Positions 955-57,383 of a stretch of 64,000 bases of DNA are shown one piece after another; within the stretch, counting starts at the first letter, position 1, and the number at the start of each line of letters is the position of its first letter. The DNA comes from Escherichia phage SF. Position numbers and translations under genes: made by a program. The notes under the pieces are model-generated. The model made no database searches and was not told the origin of the DNA. It was given only the letters and a program-made list of their open reading frames with translations. The stretch is from sequence record MH359124; one strand, 5' to 3'.

Positions 955-1853
955 TGGCTATTTTCCGCGTACCTATCTTGAGTATGCGGTCTTATGAAAC
1001 TGGACAGTATGCTATCCTTAAGGATGGCAACTTCCAACTTCATTTGCACCGTGCTAATCCAGGTGATGTGATTACATATCCACGTAATGCATCTGATATT
1101 AAAGAATGTGAACGTCTTTTCCCGGAATTTAAGTTTGTTCCATTATGGTATAAAGATAACGCATATAACACTCGTAAATATTTCTGGTCTGAAAATGAAT
1201 TTGTGGTTGATTCATTAATTGATTATTATGATTGTGATTTTCTAATCACAGATATCACTGGATATGACGGCACTTTTGACGTAGAATTCAATTTCAATAT
1301 CACTGCGGACCCTAATAAACCACGTTTTTATATTGACGAATTCTTAAAAACCGACATGTTGTCTGTTAATCGTTCACTTCAAACTACTGTGTTGAATGAA
1401 CGTCAAAAAGAAGTGCTGGTTAACGCAGGTGCAGATGGTAATAAGATTATCGTAACCCGGAAAGTTATACGTCCTTCCATCATGCAGCGTCTTGTAGGTG
1501 ATTTGGCTCCTATTCATCTAGATGGTATTTTTCATCCATTTCGAATTAGTGACCCGTGTTATCGTTTTGAACAAGTGGTTGAATGTGCAATTCAATTAGG
1601 TCAACCGCTTTATATAACCGATCCAAATAATAGCTTCGACAGAAATAAGTATCCTGAAGAAGCGCTGATTCGAATTTTTAATCCAACTAAAACTGAGTAC
1701 TATCAAATTCTTAAAGGACGGCCGAAGATTCAATATTTCGAAAATCCTGAAGAAGTATTCCATCCAGGTCTTGGCGAGTTCATCTACTTTAACGCTTTAA
1801 TTTCTTCACCGTATAATATACCTAAATATGAAGATGTCGTAATCGAGGAATAA
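954..1853 (+). CDS. Hypothetical protein at the beta-glucosyltransferase locus; candidate DNA-modification transferase
   Basis: 299-aa ORF starting at the stop of gene 42 (overlap ATGG); no similarity to T4 beta-gt that I can recognise; function inferred only from position. Confidence 0.5.
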   Translation: MAIFRVPILSMRSYETGQYAILKDGNFQLHLHRANPGDVITYPRNASDIKECERLFPEFKFVPLWYKDNAYNTRKYFWSENEFVVDSLIDYYDCDFLITDITGYDGTFDVEFNFNITADPNKPRFYIDEFLKTDMLSVNRSLQTTVLNERQKEVLVNAGADGNKIIVTRKVIRPSIMQRLVGDLAPIHLDGIFHPFRISDPCYRFEQVVECAIQLGQPLYITDPNNSFDRNKYPEEALIRIFNPTKTEYYQILKGRPKIQYFENPEEVFHPGLGEFIYFNALISSPYNIPKYEDVVIEE

Positions 1854-1854
1854 A

Positions 1855-2403
1855 ATGGCTAAAATTATTTTAGTAGATGGCCCGGATAATGCTGGTAAAA
1901 CAACTTTCATTAATGACATAATGGAAATTAGTGAAAGATATGTAAAGATTGATTTCCCTAAACGAACAGTTGATGGACGTTTCGACGTTAAGTCTCGAAA
2001 TGAAGTTGGCTGTTTCGAAACGATGTTGAATTATTTAGACCCTACTAAGATTTATCTGTTAGACCGTGGATATATTAGTAACTGGGTTTATGGACGTATT
2101 CGACAAGATGCGGACTCGGTTCTTGACGTTTATGAACAGGATTATGTTCGTCTTTGCCAAAACCACGATGTGTTCACAATTATTTTAACACGTAACGAAA
2201 TGACTGAAAGTTTTGAAGACGACCTTATTACTTTGTCTTCATTCGGTTTTAATACAGTAATTTCATATTTTGAAGAGTTTGCAATCCATAACGAAATCCA
2301 AACGTATCAATTACTTAATCATGATGGTGCTAACAAAGTTATAGGATTTAATGCAAGCGAACGTAATAATTTGATTACAGAAATCATCAAATGGGCTCGT
2401 TAA
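1855..2403 (+). CDS. P-loop kinase-like protein (dNMP/thymidylate-kinase-like)
   Basis: 182-aa ORF; Walker A GPDNAGKTT near N-terminus and LLDRGY motif typical of nucleotide kinases; 1 nt after previous stop. Confidence 0.55.
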   Translation: MAKIILVDGPDNAGKTTFINDIMEISERYVKIDFPKRTVDGRFDVKSRNEVGCFETMLNYLDPTKIYLLDRGYISNWVYGRIRQDADSVLDVYEQDYVRLCQNHDVFTIILTRNEMTESFEDDLITLSSFGFNTVISYFEEFAIHNEIQTYQLLNHDGANKVIGFNASERNNLITEIIKWAR

Positions 2404-2422
2404 GAGCCTGTTTAAAGTTTTT

Positions 2423-2450
2423 AAATGCTGTATAACCATTAGTATATAAT
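2423..2450 (+). promoter_or_regulatory. Middle promoter candidate for uvsX
   Basis: AAATGCTGTA box, 12-nt spacer, -10 TATAAT at about 2445..2450. Confidence 0.4.
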
Positions 2451-2503
2451 CATCTTATCTTTTAAACATGAGTAAAATATAATGATGCCTATGGAAAAAT
2501 ACA

Positions 2504-3676
2504 ATGTCTGATTTAAAATCTCGTCTGATTAAAGCTTCTACTTCTAAAATGACCGCAGACTTGACTAAGTCTAAGTTGTTTAATAATCGCGATGAAGTCC
2601 CTACTCGTATTCCGATGTTGAATATTGCATTAGGTGGTGCACTGAATGCTGGGTTGCAATCAGGCTTAACTATTTTTGCTGCTCCTTCTAAACACTTTAA
2701 AACGTTGTTTGGACTGACCATGGTTGCAGCATATATGAAGAAATATAAAGATGCAATTTGTTTGTTCTATGATTCTGAATTTGGTGCTTCAGAATCTTAT
2801 TTTCGTTCAATGGGTGTTGATTTAGACCGTGTAGTTCATACTCCGATTCAATCTGTCGAACAACTTAAAGTTGATATGACTAATCAGCTTGATGCTATCG
2901 AACGCGGTGATAAAGTTATTATCTTTATCGATTCAATCGGTAATACTGCATCTAAGAAAGAAACTGAAGATGCATTGAACGAGAAAGTCGTAGGTGATAT
3001 GTCTCGTGCTAAGGCACTTAAATCTCTTTTCCGTATTGTGACTCCTTATCTGACTATTAAAGATATTCCGTGTGTTGCAATCAACCATACAGCAATGGAA
3101 ATTGGCGGATTGTATCCTAAAGAGATTATGGGTGGTGGTACAGGTATTCTTTATTCTGCCAACACGGTATTTTTTATCTCTAAACGTCAGGTTAAAGAAG
3201 GTACAGAATTGACCGGTTATGACTTCACGTTGAAAGCAGAAAAATCTCGTACGGTTAAAGAAAAATCTACTTTCCCAATCACGGTTAATTTCGATGGTGG
3301 TATTGACCCATTCAGTGGCTTGTTAGAAATGGCAACTGAAATTGGTTTTGTAGTTAAGCCTAAAGCTGGTTGGTATGCTCGTGAATTCCTTGACGAGGAA
3401 ACAGGCGAAATGATTCGTGAAGAGAAATCATGGCGTGCTAAAGCTACTGATTGTGTAGAATTCTGGGGACCGTTGTTTAAACACAAACCTTTCCGAGATG
3501 CAATTGAAACTAAATATAAGCTAGGTGCTATCTCTTCTATTAAAGAAGTTGATGACGCTGTTAACGACCTTATTAATTGCAAAGCAACAACTAAAGTTCC
3601 GGTTAAAACTTCTGATGCTCCGTCTGCAGCAGATATAGAAAACGACCTTGACGAAATGGAAGATTTCGATGAATAA
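2504..3676 (+). CDS. uvsX: UvsX RecA-like recombinase
   Basis: 390-aa ORF; N-terminus and RecA-fold motifs match T4 UvsX from memory; correct synteny. Confidence 0.95.
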   Translation: MSDLKSRLIKASTSKMTADLTKSKLFNNRDEVPTRIPMLNIALGGALNAGLQSGLTIFAAPSKHFKTLFGLTMVAAYMKKYKDAICLFYDSEFGASESYFRSMGVDLDRVVHTPIQSVEQLKVDMTNQLDAIERGDKVIIFIDSIGNTASKKETEDALNEKVVGDMSRAKALKSLFRIVTPYLTIKDIPCVAINHTAMEIGGLYPKEIMGGGTGILYSANTVFFISKRQVKEGTELTGYDFTLKAEKSRTVKEKSTFPITVNFDGGIDPFSGLLEMATEIGFVVKPKAGWYAREFLDEETGEMIREEKSWRAKATDCVEFWGPLFKHKPFRDAIETKYKLGAISSIKEVDDAVNDLINCKATTKVPVKTSDAPSAADIENDLDEMEDFDE

Positions 3677-4010
3677 TCTCGATGATTTAAATCTAGAAAT
3701 CGTTGATGAATCCCCTTCTTCGGAAGGGGAAGACATTCGCAAAGAACGAGTGTTTAATGAATCTCTTAAAATTATCCGTTCAGCAATGGAAAATGTCATT
3801 CAAGAGATTCTGATTACGCTTGAAGATGGTTCTCATCATATAGTCTATATTACAAAACTAGACTGGGTTGATGGTAAAATCGTAATGGACTTTGCAGTTC
3901 TTGACCAGGACAGAAAAGCAGAACTTGCACCACATGTTGAAAAATGTGTTACAATGCAAGTACAACAAGCTTTTAATGAACGGACCAAGAAAAAATTTAA
4001 ATTCTTTTAA
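3669..4010 (+). CDS. 40: gp40 head vertex assembly chaperone-like
   Basis: ORF track 3648..4010; likely start at ATG 3669 overlapping the uvsX stop; position between uvsX and 41. Confidence 0.6.
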   Translation: MNNLDDLNLEIVDESPSSEGEDIRKERVFNESLKIIRSAMENVIQEILITLEDGSHHIVYITKLDWVDGKIVMDFAVLDQDRKAELAPHVEKCVTMQVQQAFNERTKKKFKFF

Positions 4011-14808: not shown

Positions 14809-15120
14809 ATGGTTTATGTATATGCAATAGTTTATCGAGATATGGAAGGATTTACTGTCCCGGTTCCACTTGATGAGCATCGTCCTGCAGTATTTTTTAG
14901 AAAGGATATTGCAGATAAAGTTTTCGATACTTTGAAAACACAGTATAAAACAGATTTAAAAATGGGAGTTCTAAGAATGGTCGAAACTCCGCGTAAGTTC
15001 TGGTTTAATAAGCTTGAAATGAAACACGTTAAACTAGATGCGGAGACGCAAAGATTGTATCAACGAATCCTGGATACAGGCCGTATTGTTAGTATTCCAA
15101 TTGCAGGGACTTTACGATGA
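14809..15120 (+). CDS. Dda.1-like hypothetical protein
   Basis: 103-aa ORF directly upstream of and overlapping dda. Confidence 0.5.
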   Translation: MVYVYAIVYRDMEGFTVPVPLDEHRPAVFFRKDIADKVFDTLKTQYKTDLKMGVLRMVETPRKFWFNKLEMKHVKLDAETQRLYQRILDTGRIVSIPIAGTLR

Positions 15121-16430
15121 CATTTGATGATTTGACTGAAGGTCAGAAAAACGCCTTCAACGTTGTTATGAACGCCATTAAAGAAAAGAAACATCACGTA
15201 ACTATTAATGGGCCTGCTGGCACAGGTAAAACAACCCTTACTAGATTCATCGTTGAAGCCCTTATTTCTTCTGGAGAATCAGGTATTATTTTAGCAGCCC
15301 CTACACATGCTGCTAAAAAGGTTCTAAGCAAACTTGCGGGTCAAGAAGCATCGACTATTCATAGCATTCTTAAAATCAACCCAACTACATACGAAGAAAA
15401 CGTATTGTTTGAACAGAAAAAGGTCCCCGACTTAGCCTTGTGCCGTGTACTGTTATTTGATGAAGCGTCAATGTGCGACCGTTCTCTGTTTAAAATAATG
15501 TTAGCTAGTATCCCTAAATGGTGTACAGTAATTGGAATCGGCGACCGATGCCAGATTCGTCCGGTAGACCCAGGCGAATCAACTGCGTATCTAAGTCCTT
15601 TCTTCACTCACAAAGACTTCGTGCAATGCAACCTTACAGAAGTTAAACGTAGCAATGCACCAATTATTGATGTTGCGACTGATATTCGTAATGGTAAATG
15701 GATTTACGATAAAGTAGTTGATGGACACGGTGTTCATGGATATACAGACCTTAAATCGTATATGATGAACTATTTTAACGTCGTTAAAACTCCTGAAGAC
15801 CTTTTCGAAAATCGAATGATGGCATTCACAAATAAGTCGGTGGACAAGTTAAATTCAATTATTCGCCGAAAACTTCTTGAAACAGAAAAACCGTTTATTA
15901 AAGACGAGGTCATTGTTCTACAAGAGCCATTTACTAAGACATATAAGCTAGATGGTAAAAATATGACCGAAATGCTTTTCAATAACGGCCAATTCGTTCG
16001 TATTCGAGATGCTGTAGAAACGTCTACATTCGTTAAAGCACGTGGTGTTTCAGGCGAATATATGATACGATACTGGAATCTTACAGTAGAAACATATGGG
16101 GATGATGAAGAATACATCCGCGAAGATATAAAGGTTATTTCTTCTGAAGAAGAGCTTTATAAATTCAATTTGTTTTTAGCTAAGACCGCAGAAACATACA
16201 AATTTTGGAATAAAGGTGGTAAAGCTCCATGGAGCGAATTCTGGGATGCTAAACGTATGTTCACTAAGGTGAAGGCACTACCAGTATCAACCTTCCATAA
16301 AGCCCAGGGTATGTCTGTTGACACAGCCTTTGTTTATACACCGTGTATCCATTATGCCGATTCAGAATTAGCTAAACAGTTATTGTATGTCGGCACAACT
16401 CGTGGTCGTTTTGACGTCCATTTTATTTGA
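15117..16430 (+). CDS. dda: Dda DNA helicase (SF1B)
   Basis: 437-aa ORF; Walker A GPAGTGKTT and helicase motifs; matches T4 Dda size and N-terminus. Confidence 0.9.
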   Translation: MTFDDLTEGQKNAFNVVMNAIKEKKHHVTINGPAGTGKTTLTRFIVEALISSGESGIILAAPTHAAKKVLSKLAGQEASTIHSILKINPTTYEENVLFEQKKVPDLALCRVLLFDEASMCDRSLFKIMLASIPKWCTVIGIGDRCQIRPVDPGESTAYLSPFFTHKDFVQCNLTEVKRSNAPIIDVATDIRNGKWIYDKVVDGHGVHGYTDLKSYMMNYFNVVKTPEDLFENRMMAFTNKSVDKLNSIIRRKLLETEKPFIKDEVIVLQEPFTKTYKLDGKNMTEMLFNNGQFVRIRDAVETSTFVKARGVSGEYMIRYWNLTVETYGDDEEYIREDIKVISSEEELYKFNLFLAKTAETYKFWNKGGKAPWSEFWDAKRMFTKVKALPVSTFHKAQGMSVDTAFVYTPCIHYADSELAKQLLYVGTTRGRFDVHFI

Positions 16431-16439
16431 GAGAAAATT

Positions 16440-17117
16440 ATGAGCACTGATGTTATTATAGATTTTGAAACATTCGGCAATACATCAAAAGCGGCTGTTA
16501 TTGACCTTGCGGTTATTGCATATAATTCCGACCCTGAAGTTGTTGAATCATTTGAAGAACTTGTTCAACGAGGTAAGCGAATTAAATTTAATCTAGCTTC
16601 TCAGAAAGGGAAGCGAGTTTTCGCTAAATCTACTATGAAATGGTGGAAAGAACAATCGGCTGAAGCACGTAAAAACTTGGCTCCGTCTGAAGACGATGTC
16701 ACTACGCTTGAAGGCATTAAAATCTTTTTAGATTATTGCCGAGCTAATAAAGTTGACCAATGGAAATCACAGATGTGGTGCCGTGGTATGAGCTTTGACT
16801 TCCCGATCTTGGTCGATTTGATTCGTGACCTCTATCGTGATGAAGGTGTTCCTGAACCAGAGATTGATACTGATAAATTAGAACCGGTTAAATTCTGGGC
16901 TCAACGCGATATTCGTACGGCAATCGAAGCTTACTCGTTGACACGAGGATTAAGTATGTGTCCATTACCGATAGGTACGCTAAAAGGATTCGTTGCCCAT
17001 GATAGTATTCATGATTGTGCTAAAGATATTTTGATGTTAAAATATGCTCAGCGTTATGCGCTTGGTCTTGAAGATGTCCCTGAGAATCCAGACCCGTTAA
17101 GTGTAAAACAGCGATAA
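16440..17117 (+). CDS. dexA: DexA exonuclease A (DEDD family)
   Basis: 225-aa ORF; IIDFETFG exonuclease motif; T4 DexA is about 227 aa; synteny. Confidence 0.85.
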   Translation: MSTDVIIDFETFGNTSKAAVIDLAVIAYNSDPEVVESFEELVQRGKRIKFNLASQKGKRVFAKSTMKWWKEQSAEARKNLAPSEDDVTTLEGIKIFLDYCRANKVDQWKSQMWCRGMSFDFPILVDLIRDLYRDEGVPEPEIDTDKLEPVKFWAQRDIRTAIEAYSLTRGLSMCPLPIGTLKGFVAHDSIHDCAKDILMLKYAQRYALGLEDVPENPDPLSVKQR

Positions 17118-17122
17118 AATCA

Positions 17123-17152
17123 GTTTACAACCAAGGACGGTTGGAGTATAAT
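17123..17152 (+). promoter_or_regulatory. Early promoter
   Basis: GTTTAC, 18 nt, TATAAT; drives ORF 17184. Confidence 0.65.
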
Positions 17153-17183: not shown

Positions 17184-17678
17184 ATGAATATCAATACTAC
17201 GGCTACTTACATCCTGAAAGACGAAAAACAAATCAACTGGTACGGTGCTTCAGTGCGAGCTTATGAAAAGTTTTGTGAAATTTTAGGTGCCACTCAAGGT
17301 AATAGTTTCACTATTGTTAACTTCATTAAACAAGCTGAAGGCCCTTGGTTATTCTTAGAAATTAAAAATTCATATGGTACAATTTCTACTACTGCCATTC
17401 CAAGCACCGACTTTGAACTCTTGATTGAAGAAGTAGAACCCGTTAAAGACATCTGTATTGATATGGATATCGCTTGTATGTACGGTACTCTGATTAAGCA
17501 TATTGAGCCTACTGATTTATTGTGTAAATATGTTTCAATTCGACGCCCATTCGCTGGTCCAGTAAATGGATGGGTAACTGACCAATGGATTGAAGACGGT
17601 GTTGAACTTCTGAACGTTGTTCACGCAAGTGATTTTAGTGTAGTTCCACGTAGTGCTGTGGTTAATATCCTTAATTAA
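17184..17678 (+). CDS. Hypothetical protein, paralog family member A
   Basis: 164-aa ORF; C-terminal GWVTDQWIEDGVELLNVVHASDFSVVP shared with the two following ORFs. Confidence 0.6.
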   Translation: MNINTTATYILKDEKQINWYGASVRAYEKFCEILGATQGNSFTIVNFIKQAEGPWLFLEIKNSYGTISTTAIPSTDFELLIEEVEPVKDICIDMDIACMYGTLIKHIEPTDLLCKYVSIRRPFAGPVNGWVTDQWIEDGVELLNVVHASDFSVVPRSAVVNILN

Positions 17679-17680
17679 TG

Positions 17681-17710
17681 TTGTACATCCAAGGACGGAT
17701 GGAGTATAAT
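17681..17710 (+). promoter_or_regulatory. Early promoter
   Basis: TTGTAC, 18 nt, TATAAT; near-duplicate of the 17123 promoter (CCAAGGACGG.TGGAGTATAAT); drives ORF 17742. Confidence 0.6.
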
Positions 17711-17741
17711 GAATTCAATTTAACAAAGAGAGAGAGAAATT

Positions 17742-18197
17742 ATGATTACTATTGGTGAAATTAAGCGTGTATCAATTGCATCCCGGTCTAAAGCCGCAGG
17801 TCGTCTGGTTGAAGTTATCGGACTTCGCACAAATGGCATGGGACGTATTAAAGAAGTTAAAGTTCGAATCATTCCTAGTTTTGGACGTCAGGATACTCAG
17901 TACGCTTACGTAAGTCCTAAATTCTTGGAAACTCCTGTGAGCGCTCATTTTGCTTCCACTGAACCTAATGTACAGTTCAAATGGGCCCTTTGCAAAGGCG
18001 TTGAATTCCAGACTGATAAAGAATTTGACTTCATCGATGAATACGGTTATCCAAGCAAAACTGATACTATGTGTGGCTTCATTAGTGACCAATGGGTTGA
18101 AGATGGTGAAAAGTTATACAATATCGTATTCTTAGGTGACTTCCGAGTTGTTAAAGAATCTGAAATCACTCGCTATGTGTCTCCTCGTAAAGCTTAA
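17742..18197 (+). CDS. Hypothetical protein, paralog family member B
   Basis: 151-aa ORF; shares the N-terminal SIASRSKAAGRLVEV motif and C-terminal GFISDQWVEDG..LYNIVF motif with 18207..18626. Confidence 0.6.
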   Translation: MITIGEIKRVSIASRSKAAGRLVEVIGLRTNGMGRIKEVKVRIIPSFGRQDTQYAYVSPKFLETPVSAHFASTEPNVQFKWALCKGVEFQTDKEFDFIDEYGYPSKTDTMCGFISDQWVEDGEKLYNIVFLGDFRVVKESEITRYVSPRKA

Positions 18198-18206
18198 GGA
18201 ATTATT

Positions 18207-18626
18207 ATGAATATTGTAAATCTCTCTACAAGTGATTACGTATATGTATCTGTTGCTTCTCGCTCTAAAGTTGCTGGGAAGTTGGTTGAAGTTCTTTCTG
18301 TAAGTTGTGGACTCTTTAGTCCACATCAAGTTAAAGTTCGTGATGCTGATGGCAACATTGGCTACGTCTCAAGCCAATTCATTGAACCAGAAGAAAAAGC
18401 GTTCAAATGGGGACTATGCAGATCGGTTTCTGTTGAAAAAGACCATGAATTCACTATTGCTGCGGCAACTGATGGAACGCCGTGGAAAACTAAGCAAATC
18501 GCCGGATTTATTAGTGACCGTTGGGTAGAAGATGGTGTTAAGCTTTATAACATCGTTTTCGCTGGACAGTTCATGGTAGTTCCTGAATTCCAAATTAAAA
18601 AATATAGCCCAGCTGCTTTCGCATAA
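18207..18626 (+). CDS. Hypothetical protein, paralog family member C
   Basis: 139-aa ORF, clear paralog of 17742..18197. Confidence 0.6.
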   Translation: MNIVNLSTSDYVYVSVASRSKVAGKLVEVLSVSCGLFSPHQVKVRDADGNIGYVSSQFIEPEEKAFKWGLCRSVSVEKDHEFTIAAATDGTPWKTKQIAGFISDRWVEDGVKLYNIVFAGQFMVVPEFQIKKYSPAAFA

Positions 18627-18630
18627 AGTT

Positions 18631-18659
18631 GTTTACTTCTCCTCTGGTTTTGATATTAT
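18631..18659 (+). promoter_or_regulatory. Early promoter (PeSL-like)
   Basis: GTTTAC, 17 nt, TATTAT flanked by IR CCTCTGGTT/AACCAGAGG; drives ORF 18686. Confidence 0.65.
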
Positions 18660-18685
18660 AACCATATCAACCAGAGGAGAATAAT

Positions 18686-19210
18686 ATGTTAGTTTACCGC
18701 GTAGAACGTAGTTTTTGTACTCAACGTGAATCATTACCAGGAATTGCTATCGAAGACGGTAAAGCCGTCAGAATTTGGGAAACCTCTTGGAATAAAGAAC
18801 CTCGTTCGCCATACGGTTGGTCGGGCACCGACAACTCTGAAGAAACATGGGAGTTCCTTGATAAGCATGGAATACTCTCAGGTAACTTCTACCATCATGG
18901 CGACAACTACAATGTCTCTAATCGTCCTACAGTAAATGAAGACAAACTCCTTGAACAAAATATCTTAAGATACTATAGAATTGAGCACACATTTGAATTG
19001 AGTGAAGATTGGGCTCAAGGGTTCTATTTTGGATTTGAAAGTGTTGACGCGGTTTATGCATGGTTTGATGACCAGGTGGATGTTGAACTCTTGAAAGCTA
19101 AAGGATACTACATAGCGGTCTATGAAGCACCTGATTTCATCCTCGGAAGTTGTCAATTAATGTTTAGACGTTCATTGGCAGAACAAGTTGATTTTATTTT
19201 GCTAAAATGA
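18686..19210 (+). CDS. Hypothetical protein
   Basis: 174-aa ORF with own promoter and AGAGGAG SD. Confidence 0.6.
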   Translation: MLVYRVERSFCTQRESLPGIAIEDGKAVRIWETSWNKEPRSPYGWSGTDNSEETWEFLDKHGILSGNFYHHGDNYNVSNRPTVNEDKLLEQNILRYYRIEHTFELSEDWAQGFYFGFESVDAVYAWFDDQVDVELLKAKGYYIAVYEAPDFILGSCQLMFRRSLAEQVDFILLK

Positions 19211-19240
19211 TGTACAACAACTATGGTCTATGATACTATA
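19210..19240 (+). promoter_or_regulatory. Early promoter candidate (PeSL-like)
   Basis: ATGTAC and TGATACTATAGACC inside IR GGTCTAT..ATAGACC; spacing non-ideal; drives ORF 19268. Confidence 0.4.
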
Positions 19241-19267
19241 GACCTATCAAAACAAGAGGAGAATATT

Positions 19268-19495
19268 ATGAAACGTCAAATCATTAAAAACGTAACTACT
19301 GATTCAAACATCGATGAGTTTGAAGATGTTCTGTTTAATCCTGATTTAGTTGTTGTACAGAAAAACTGGACCGAATTTTTATGCTACACTGAAGTGGTTT
19401 ACGTTTACGAAAAACTCGGCGATGAAATGCCTATCTATGGTATCTTCCGTGAAATCACTGAAAATGGTACAACTTATTGGAAGGAAACTTACTAA
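19268..19495 (+). CDS. Hypothetical protein
   Basis: In-frame ATG of ORF 19223..19495 after AGAGGAG. Confidence 0.5.
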
Positions 19496-28607: not shown

Positions 28608-28637
28608 TTGTACAAACTCTTGAGAGCAGAGTATAAT
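28608..28637 (+). promoter_or_regulatory. Early promoter (PeSL-like)
   Basis: TTGTAC, 18 nt, TATAAT inside IR GAGAGCA..TGCTCTC; drives ndd. Confidence 0.6.
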
Positions 28638-57354: not shown

Positions 57355-57383
57355 TTTACAAACTCTCGGGAGCAGAGTATAAT
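57354..57383 (+). promoter_or_regulatory. Early promoter (PeSL-like)
   Basis: GTTTAC, 18 nt, TATAAT inside IR GGAGCA..TGCTCC; near-duplicate of the 28608 cassette; drives ORF 57412. Confidence 0.65.

Follow-up and report, generated by a model that had tools for sequence, protein, structure and literature searches.

Three consecutive small genes lie downstream of dexA at positions 17184 to 18626 of the Escherichia phage SF DNA analyzed here (sequence record MH359124), and are referred to as ORF1, ORF2, and ORF3 (open reading frames 1 to 3). The whole stretch of DNA, 64,000 nucleotides (nt) in length, is called the window. We consider it highly probable that these genes are the motB.1, motB, and second motB of a Mosigvirus, and that they encode small early proteins with two beta-barrels which, judging from their homology to MotB of phage T4, would take part in the takeover of the host nucleoid and of H-NS. 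What is established in this interpretation comprises the homology and synteny of the genes, the domain that they share, the purifying selection on them, and their promoter motifs, and the biochemical activities of all three proteins are assigned by analogy. The genes and features of the cluster are the following (aa, amino acids):

17124-17152, plus strand: promoter P1 for ORF1, with TTTACA, a 17-nt spacer (CCAAGGACGGTTGGAG), and TATAAT (11/12)
17184-17678, plus strand: ORF1 (motB.1), 164 aa
17499-17675, plus strand: shared C-terminal domain of ORF1, PTDLLC...GWVTDQWIEDGVELLNVVH subtype
17682-17710, plus strand: promoter P2 for ORF2 and ORF3, with TGTACA, a 17-nt spacer (CCAAGGACGGATGGAG), and TATAAT (10/12)
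17742-18197, plus strand: ORF2 (motB), 151 aa
17976-18194, plus strand: shared C-terminal domain of ORF2, FKW...GFISDQWVEDGEKLYNIVF subtype
18207-18626, plus strand: ORF3 (second motB), 139 aa
18402-18623, plus strand: shared C-terminal domain of ORF3
18632-18681, plus strand: composite of promoter (TTTACT, 16 nt, TATTAT) and hairpin upstream of motB.2, which forms the downstream boundary of the cluster

The first-pass annotation had placed the three ORFs downstream of dexA and had recognized a C-terminal motif common to all of them and an N-terminal segment common to the last two, and these observations held up. The coordinates given for the cluster were exact; ORF1 starts at 17184 and dexA ends at 17117. 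The pattern G[FWY][IV][ST]D[QR]W[IV]E[DEN]G..L.N[IVA]V matched once in each ORF and nowhere else when the 64-kb window was translated in six frames and cut from stop to stop into 1235 pieces. The N-terminal segment is present in both ORF2 (SIASRSKAAGRLVEV) and ORF3 (SVASRSKVAGKLVEV); the string reported earlier is the ORF3 version, and ORF2 has I instead of V at position 2. Comparisons with BLASTP linked ORF2 to ORF3 at E=2e-32 (45% identity across 137 aa), and ORF1 to ORF2 and ORF3 at E=2e-9 and E=1e-9, respectively, with the similarity of ORF1 limited to the final 30-36 residues. All three proteins scored above the curated gathering cut-off (25 bits) of the Pfam family motB (PF17613), with 126 bits for ORF2, 75.2 bits for ORF3, and 34.1 bits for ORF1, and their C-terminal core is that of the Pfam family, G-x-[IV]-[ST]-D-[QR]-W-[IV]-E-D-G-x-x-L-x-N-[IV]-V. 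The alignment invariants of the MotB family are S14 R15 S16 G20 ... D116 W118 E120 G122. As judged by these comparisons, the three ORFs are true paralogues that share the C-terminal domain (C-domain). The full two-domain MotB architecture, that is, a KOW-like N-terminal domain (N-domain) with the SRSKAAG motif plus the C-domain, was found in ORF2 and ORF3 and not in ORF1, the N-domain of which is of the MotB.1 type. Since only the C-domain is common and the N-domain is different, ORF1 appears as a domain-sharing relative and not as a duplicate of ORF2 or ORF3.

Searches against family profiles and structures agreed with these assignments. ORF1 matched phrog_2333 (PHROG 2333) over its full length (E=2.5e-81, aa 1-164), and its match to PF17613 (E=3.1e-8, above the cut-off) covered aa 84-159 and profile positions 78-153 only. 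It was 37% identical to T4 MotB.1 (BLASTP, E=8e-26), matched T4 MotB.1 P39415 in Foldseek (E=3.9e-10), and showed 100% identity with an Escherichia phage SF protein. ORF2 and ORF3 belong over their full length to both PF17613 (E=1.6e-36 and E=6.9e-21) and phrog_1671 (PHROG 1671, MotB-like regulator; E=8.7e-64 and E=3.6e-49), and ORF2 was 92% identical to RB69 MotB. ORF3 is a short second MotB of the RB69p010/RB51ORF010 type, without the hairpin extension of the N-domain and without most of the linker, and copies at least 80% identical to it were found in 205 phage records, those of the Tequatrovirus RB51 and RB27 included. Searches of NCBIfam gave nothing significant, and ORF2 had no match among PDB sequences even at E<=10. 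Many homologues of ORF2 have been annotated with 14-21 additional residues (165/172 aa, starting MEYNEF... or MLYIQGWMEYNEF...), an extension that corresponds to window positions 17687-17741 and translates across the promoter itself. Since a stop at 17721-17723 closes this frame in the window, the plausible product is the 151-aa form, and a misplaced start site probably accounts for the longer annotations.

Models of ORF1 and ORF2 obtained with AlphaFold2 (AF2; predicted local distance difference test scores of 79.9 and 83.8, respectively) both displayed two all-beta or mostly beta domains with a disordered linker between them. In ORF1, a putative LSm-like N-domain (approximately aa 1-85; strands 8-11, 42-49, 55-61, 67-73, and 80-82, helix 26-37) is followed by the linker (aa 86-105) and a MotB-type C-barrel (approximately aa 106-164). 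The corresponding parts of ORF2 are a KOW/SH3-like N-domain, a linker at aa 66-75, and a C-barrel at aa 79-151. ORF1 and ORF2 have only the C-domain in common and yet many of their top structure matches coincide, from which we infer that the shared C-domain is probably an SH3-like barrel of the Tudor/KOW type. The N-domain of ORF2 is strongly basic (isoelectric point, pI, of 10.4), as in T4 MotB, and its C-domain is acidic (pI 4.7). ORF1 is acidic overall (pI 4.6, net charge -9; C-domain pI 5.0) and ORF3 is neutral (net charge 0).

The genomic setting points in the same direction. By megablast, the window derives from a Mosigvirus (RB69/PhAPEC2-like T-even) genome with PHB12 as the best match (97.9%), and 146 records covered at least 80% of the query when the region was searched. 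Mosigvirus genomes 96-98% identical to the window annotate these genes as MotB.1, MotB, and MotB-like, and the annotated relatives PhAPEC2, RB69, JS09, and mar005P1 carry the same three genes in the same order. The triplet of the Tequatrovirus RB51 is annotated motB.1, motB, and RB51ORF010, and T4 has motB.1 and a single motB. The synteny dda-dexA-motB.1-motB...cef is kept in T4, in RB51, and in a divergent metagenomic T4-like contig. The position expected of the MotB family, in the early dda-dexA...cef region and behind an early promoter, is thus the one found here, the promoter being recognized by consensus match only. The neighbours are:

15117-16430, plus strand: dda
16440-17117, plus strand: dexA, with matches to the Pfam Rv2179c-like exonuclease and phrog_255, and 99% identity to RB69 DexA
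18686-19210, plus strand: ORF4 (motB.2), outside the paralogue family
3' of ORF4, plus strand: cef and goF homologues

ORF4 was 34% identical to T4 MotB.2 and unrelated to ORF1-ORF3 by BLASTP. The mechanically called ORF of cef (19223-19495) encodes 90 aa; relatives annotate 75 aa, and the start that this implies, at 19268, fits the tblastn comparison. On the antisense strand of ORF1-ORF3 no credible coding was found, the sole long frame (17772-18092, 106 aa) lying entirely within ORF2, and the entire window gave no matches when scanned with Rfam and for tRNAs.

Next we considered the age of the cluster and the selection acting on it. ORF2 and ORF3 share 54% of their nucleotides, synonymous divergence (dS) between them is saturated (>2), and their longest shared exact stretch measures 13 nt; because of this they can be regarded as old paralogues, and their duplication as ancient. 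Recent gene conversion among the paralogues was rejected, with the longest exact shared stretches being of 10-13 nt. The ratio of nonsynonymous to synonymous divergence (dN/dS) across five Mosigvirus genomes was 0.15 for ORF1, 0.17 for ORF2, and 0.19 for ORF3, meaning that purifying selection acts on each of the three. The cluster had been described at first pass as a locally expanded family. This is right in so far as the genes are true paralogues; a recent expansion is contradicted by the saturated dS and low nucleotide identity, by the restriction of the likeness of ORF1 to the C-domain, by the conservation of the motB.1-motB pair 3' of dexA in T4 and in the divergent metagenomic phage, and by the occurrence of the same triplet in RB69, JS09, PhAPEC2, mar005P1, and RB51.

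Comparison with RB51 (positions 1536-3020) revealed a marked difference between the triplet and its flanks. The three genes had a dS of 0.45-0.63 and 70-85% aa identity, whereas dexA and cef were saturated (dS 2.2-2.6) and dexA, cef, and motB.2 encoded proteins of 35-68% aa identity (35% for MotB.2). Since the likeness to RB51 is far greater within the triplet than in dexA, cef, and motB.2 around it, it looks as though Mosigvirus and RB51-like Tequatrovirus have exchanged the triplet as one cassette, and this evidence of a transfer between phage genera is a by-product of modest value. Among Mosigvirus, the alleles of ORF2 and ORF3 also diverged more (dS 0.27-0.31) than their flanks (0.07-0.14). 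Recombination between paralogues appears to occur too, as shown by two chimeras in public data: P0035 joins an ORF2-type N-domain to an ORF3-type C-domain, the product that a fusion of the tandem genes by unequal crossing-over would give, and P0103 joins a T4-type N-domain to an ORF3-type C-domain.

The description of ORF1 and ORF2 as early genes with near-duplicate promoters was corroborated, as promoters of the sigma-70/T4-early type precede both and are nearly identical to each other. The string CCAAGGACGGNTGGAGTATAAT, comprising spacer and -10 element, had exactly two copies in the window (17131-17152 and 17689-17710; 0 expected by chance), with no further matches at 3 mismatches, and the likeness of P1 and P2 is confined to the stretch from -35 to -10. 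Both promoters are kept in PhAPEC2, RB69, JS09, and mar005P1, and their putative function as early sigma-70 type promoters is judged solely by their match to the consensus. No separate promoter precedes ORF3, which starts 9 nt past the stop of ORF2 and is therefore presumably co-transcribed with ORF2 from P2. A second pair of early-type promoters (28609-28637 and 57355-57383), with nearly identical spacers of the form T[GT]TACAAACTCT.G.GAGCAGAGTATAAT (AACTCT.G.GAGCAGAGTATAAT), precedes two unrelated genes, which encode 148 aa and 99 aa, and T4 motB has a spacer of this class in its upstream region. Because this equally similar pair stands before unrelated genes, the likeness of P1 and P2 is no sign of gene duplication; repeated promoter classes are a genome-wide feature, and a general one in these genomes, as in the literature on promoter early stem-loop (PeSL) cassettes (PMC4122927). 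The variable base of the P1/P2 spacers (GGACGG vs GGATGG) is C/C in the window, T/T in PhAPEC2 and mar005P1, and T/C in RB69. This agreement may hint at occasional concerted evolution in a small sample.

At the downstream boundary, the hairpin at 18632-18681 (UUCUCCUCUGGUU...AACCAGAGGAGAA) had a folding energy of -24.6 kcal/mol (z=-4.85). Its 3' arm holds the Shine-Dalgarno sequence of motB.2, and a promoter-like -10 element (TATTAT) lies in its loop. Transcripts from the promoter in the loop would lack the 5' arm and leave the Shine-Dalgarno sequence free, and read-through transcripts would sequester it. Equivalent hairpins of different sequence are located upstream of motB.2 in T4 (3655-3733, minus strand, z -5.6) and in RB51 (950-1028, z -5.95; positions in the fetched loci).

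The function of the family is best known from T4 MotB, which is toxic to E. coli and makes a 2-fold contribution to burst size (PMC6070864), binds DNA tightly and without sequence specificity, be it unmodified or modified with glucosyl-hydroxymethylcytosine (glucosyl-hmC), and copurifies with H-NS and StpA (PMC6070864, PMC7827196). It dominantly alters the footprint of H-NS at proV and up-regulates 75 genes of the host, of which roughly a third belong to the H-NS regulon (PMC7827196). The proposal of a host-interaction family made at first pass is consistent with this prototype, which binds DNA, copurifies with the two nucleoid proteins, and derepresses H-NS-silenced genes. Judging from the promoters, ORF1 would be expressed from P1, and ORF2 and ORF3 from P2, through host sigma-70 directly after infection. 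By analogy with T4 MotB, ORF2 would most likely coat DNA without sequence specificity, remodel or compact the nucleoid, and displace or alter H-NS/StpA filaments; H-NS silencing would be relieved and burst size modestly raised. ORF3 would probably be a functionally diverged, co-expressed partner of ORF2, and ORF1, with the C-terminal module in common, would probably have a different ligand, be it RNA or protein, for its acidic LSm-like domain. The basic N-domain of ORF2 is compatible with DNA binding of the T4 MotB kind, and a MotB-like activity seems much less certain for ORF3 and ORF1 than for ORF2. Going by its title, a 2021 article by Son et al. in Nucleic Acids Research (NAR), cited in PMC12152347, reportedly credits MotB with compacting the DNA of both host and phage and with derepressing H-NS silencing.

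Several points weigh against this interpretation. Identity to T4 MotB is only 46% for ORF2 and 37% for ORF3 (BLASTP). Neither ORF3 nor ORF1 has the basic character of T4 MotB (pI 9.2), so that the two may not be DNA-coating proteins. A published HHpred analysis assigned the C-domain to the OB-fold (PMC7827196), which differs from the SH3-like model proposed above. Deletion of T4 motB.1 left burst and latent period unchanged and MotB.1 was without effect in an RNA reporter assay (PMC12152347), with the stability of mCherry RNA unaltered.

On the question of what the shared domain contributes, a profile built from the three C-domains was searched against 1.84 billion cluster representatives and recovered 28 proteins. 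Two of them, the large repeat proteins P0240 and P0244, were dismissed on inspection as spurious repeat matches, and the other ~26 were small proteins of T4-like phages; no bacterial or defence-island members were found among the profile matches. In some of the homologues a KOW N-domain of the MotB type is followed by a C-domain of the MotB.1 type, and others have one or two LSm-like N-domains. In this search space, the C-domain family is narrow, phage-specific, and modular. Because the N-domain of ORF2 is basic and the C-domain is acidic in both ORF1 and ORF2, the charge pattern suggests that the KOW-like N-domain may be the DNA-binding part and the C-domain a protein-interaction or oligomerisation module. 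The limitation of an acidic and probably SH3-like C-domain to T4-like phages bears on which domain of MotB binds DNA. A more speculative extension, which we put forward with considerable reserve, is that the C-domain might be no DNA-binding OB-fold of the kind proposed in the literature, and that as an acidic SH3/Tudor-like module it might dock onto one common partner (a nucleoid protein of the H-NS/StpA type, or the other members as hetero-oligomers) and that swappable N-domains (basic KOW, neutral KOW, and acidic LSm-like) might confer nucleic-acid or protein specificities, the whole forming a combinatorial set of adaptors shuffled by domain and cassette exchange.

The KOW (NusG/Spt5-like) and LSm-like domains could also be read, in the sense of the original name 'modifier of transcription', as those of RNA or transcription-elongation factors and not of nucleoid proteins. 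We regard this reading as improbable for the triplet; an RNA or transcription-elongation role is possible above all for ORF1. According to Kim et al. (2025), the N-domain of MotB.1 is predicted to belong to a family of LSm-like folds together with GoF and Frd.2 (PMC12152347). GoF of phage VR7 was among the Foldseek matches of ORF1 in the whole-model search, as a weak match (E=0.02), and the RNA-linked genes goF and cef are neighbours of the cluster. However, the knock-down of T4 motB left early and middle transcripts unchanged, and a few late ones were mildly lower at 5 min (PMC6070864), and the unaltered mCherry reporter RNA likewise speaks against such a role for MotB.1.

Even less credit can be given to a recent local expansion of the triplet into anti-defence proteins that diversify in an arms race with bacterial immunity, the local expansion and the anti-defence role having been raised at first pass. 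The location within a hyperplastic early region, the elevated divergence of ORF2 and ORF3 alleles among Mosigvirus, and the domain chimeras P0035 and P0103 would fit this scenario, and H-NS being a xenogeneic silencer (PMC7827196), counter-silencing could loosely be counted as anti-defence. However, the duplication is ancient, with saturated dS and no conversion tracts, the dN/dS values are those of purifying and not of diversifying selection, and many genomes have the cluster with one and the same fixed copy number. PADLOC gave no matches at E<=1 for the three proteins, no dedicated anti-defence library having been searched. The C-domain was never found in bacterial or defence-island proteins, and there is no defence-island context because the family is confined to small proteins of T4-like phages. 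No such activity is reported in the MotB literature cited here. As for mere chance or compositional likeness among unrelated small ORFs, we give it practically no credence, in view of pairwise E-values from 2e-32 to 1e-9, of Pfam and PHROG matches that are independent of the pairwise comparison, and of a motif found nowhere else in the window and kept across hundreds of phage genomes; the alignments exclude the spurious motifs against which the first-pass annotation had cautioned.

With the triplet thus read as motB.1, motB, and a second motB, the cluster is a known family rediscovered. It has been annotated since the genome papers of RB69 and RB51, and Patterson-West et al. (2021) aligned 102 phage homologues (PMC7827196, section 3.2). 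These authors described the conserved C-terminal domain and the different N-terminal regions of MotB and MotB.1, suggested that one of motB and motB.1 derived from duplication of the other, and reported for RB69 two motB copies, one motB.1, and a 29-aa peptide (PMC7827196). Genes, paralogy, and RB69-type copy number were already in the literature and in GenBank, so as a discovery the cluster matters little. The new details are the age of the duplication, the purifying selection, the cassette exchange, the distribution of the C-domain, and the SH3-like model with its acidic charge.

The comparison of motB.1 genes also brought to light frameshifts in two reference genomes. In the T4 reference NC_000866, motB.1 (119 aa) stops within the conserved motif owing to one extra G (GGATTGGAAGATGG), and the +1 frame still reads EDGVELLNVVHAGEYSVVPRSAVVAILN. 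The question was settled by comparison with T4T and T4 GT7, which read GGATTGAAGATGG and give an intact MotB.1 of 143 aa, a form also represented by P0118 on 256 contigs. The frameshift of the reference is either a sequencing error or strain-specific. Scans of IMG/VR with exact patterns of the frameshift site found no loci with either the frameshifted or the intact variant. In RB69 (NC_004928), two single-T insertions relative to the window split motB.1 into RB69p013 (132 aa) and RB69p012 (29 aa), and by this alignment the 29-aa 'Category 3 peptide' of Patterson-West et al. (2021) is the frameshifted C-terminus of MotB.1. Since both references carry a frameshifted motB.1, the 119-aa T4 'MotB.1' is without most of the C-domain that other T4 isolates encode, which bears on functional work with the '13.8 kDa' MotB.1.

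Among known systems, the closest are the orthologues themselves. RB69p013/p012 (motB.1), RB69p011 (motB), and RB69p010 (MotB-like) are direct orthologues in the same order with 85-97% protein identity, differing in that motB.1 is split in RB69 and intact in the window, and RB51 ORF012/011/010 are likewise direct orthologues in the same order. T4 MotB (NP_049626; PF17613; PHROG 1671) has the two-domain layout of ORF2 and ORF3, in which the N-terminal barrel is KOW-like and contains VSxxSRSKxAGxLVEV and the C-terminal one contains FKW...G[FY]I[ST]DQWVEDGxKLYN[IV]VF. Its gene lies between dexA and cef behind the same type of early promoter, and its N-domain is basic as in ORF2. Unlike T4, which has one copy, the window has two in tandem, the second of which (ORF3) is shortened, without linker, with a truncated N-domain hairpin, and not basic; motB.2 follows the cluster here and precedes it in T4 and RB51. 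T4 MotB.1 (P39415) resembles ORF1 in its N-domain, its PTDLLC...GWVTDQWIEDGVELLNVVH C-domain, and its place directly upstream of motB. It differs from ORF1 in lacking the ~22-aa linker insertion (DMDIACMYGTLIKH), and the T4 reference version is shortened where ORF1 is intact.

PeSL cassettes (PMC2839356, PMC4122927) resemble this locus in that repeated, near-identical early promoters flank small genes in hyperplastic regions. P1 and P2 share only the 'repeated promoter' half of that definition, whereas the motB.2 element combines promoter and stem-loop. Folding of the P1 and P2 regions was no better than that of shuffled sequences (z 0.07 and -1.0), and without a significant stem-loop the two were rejected as PeSL cassettes. 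At the level of outcome, T7 gp5.5 and T4 Arn would achieve the same as is proposed for MotB, namely an early relief of H-NS action, and they have no sequence or fold relationship to it. The route differs as well: direct binding to H-NS is described for gp5.5 and Arn, and for MotB an association by way of DNA only (PMC7827196).

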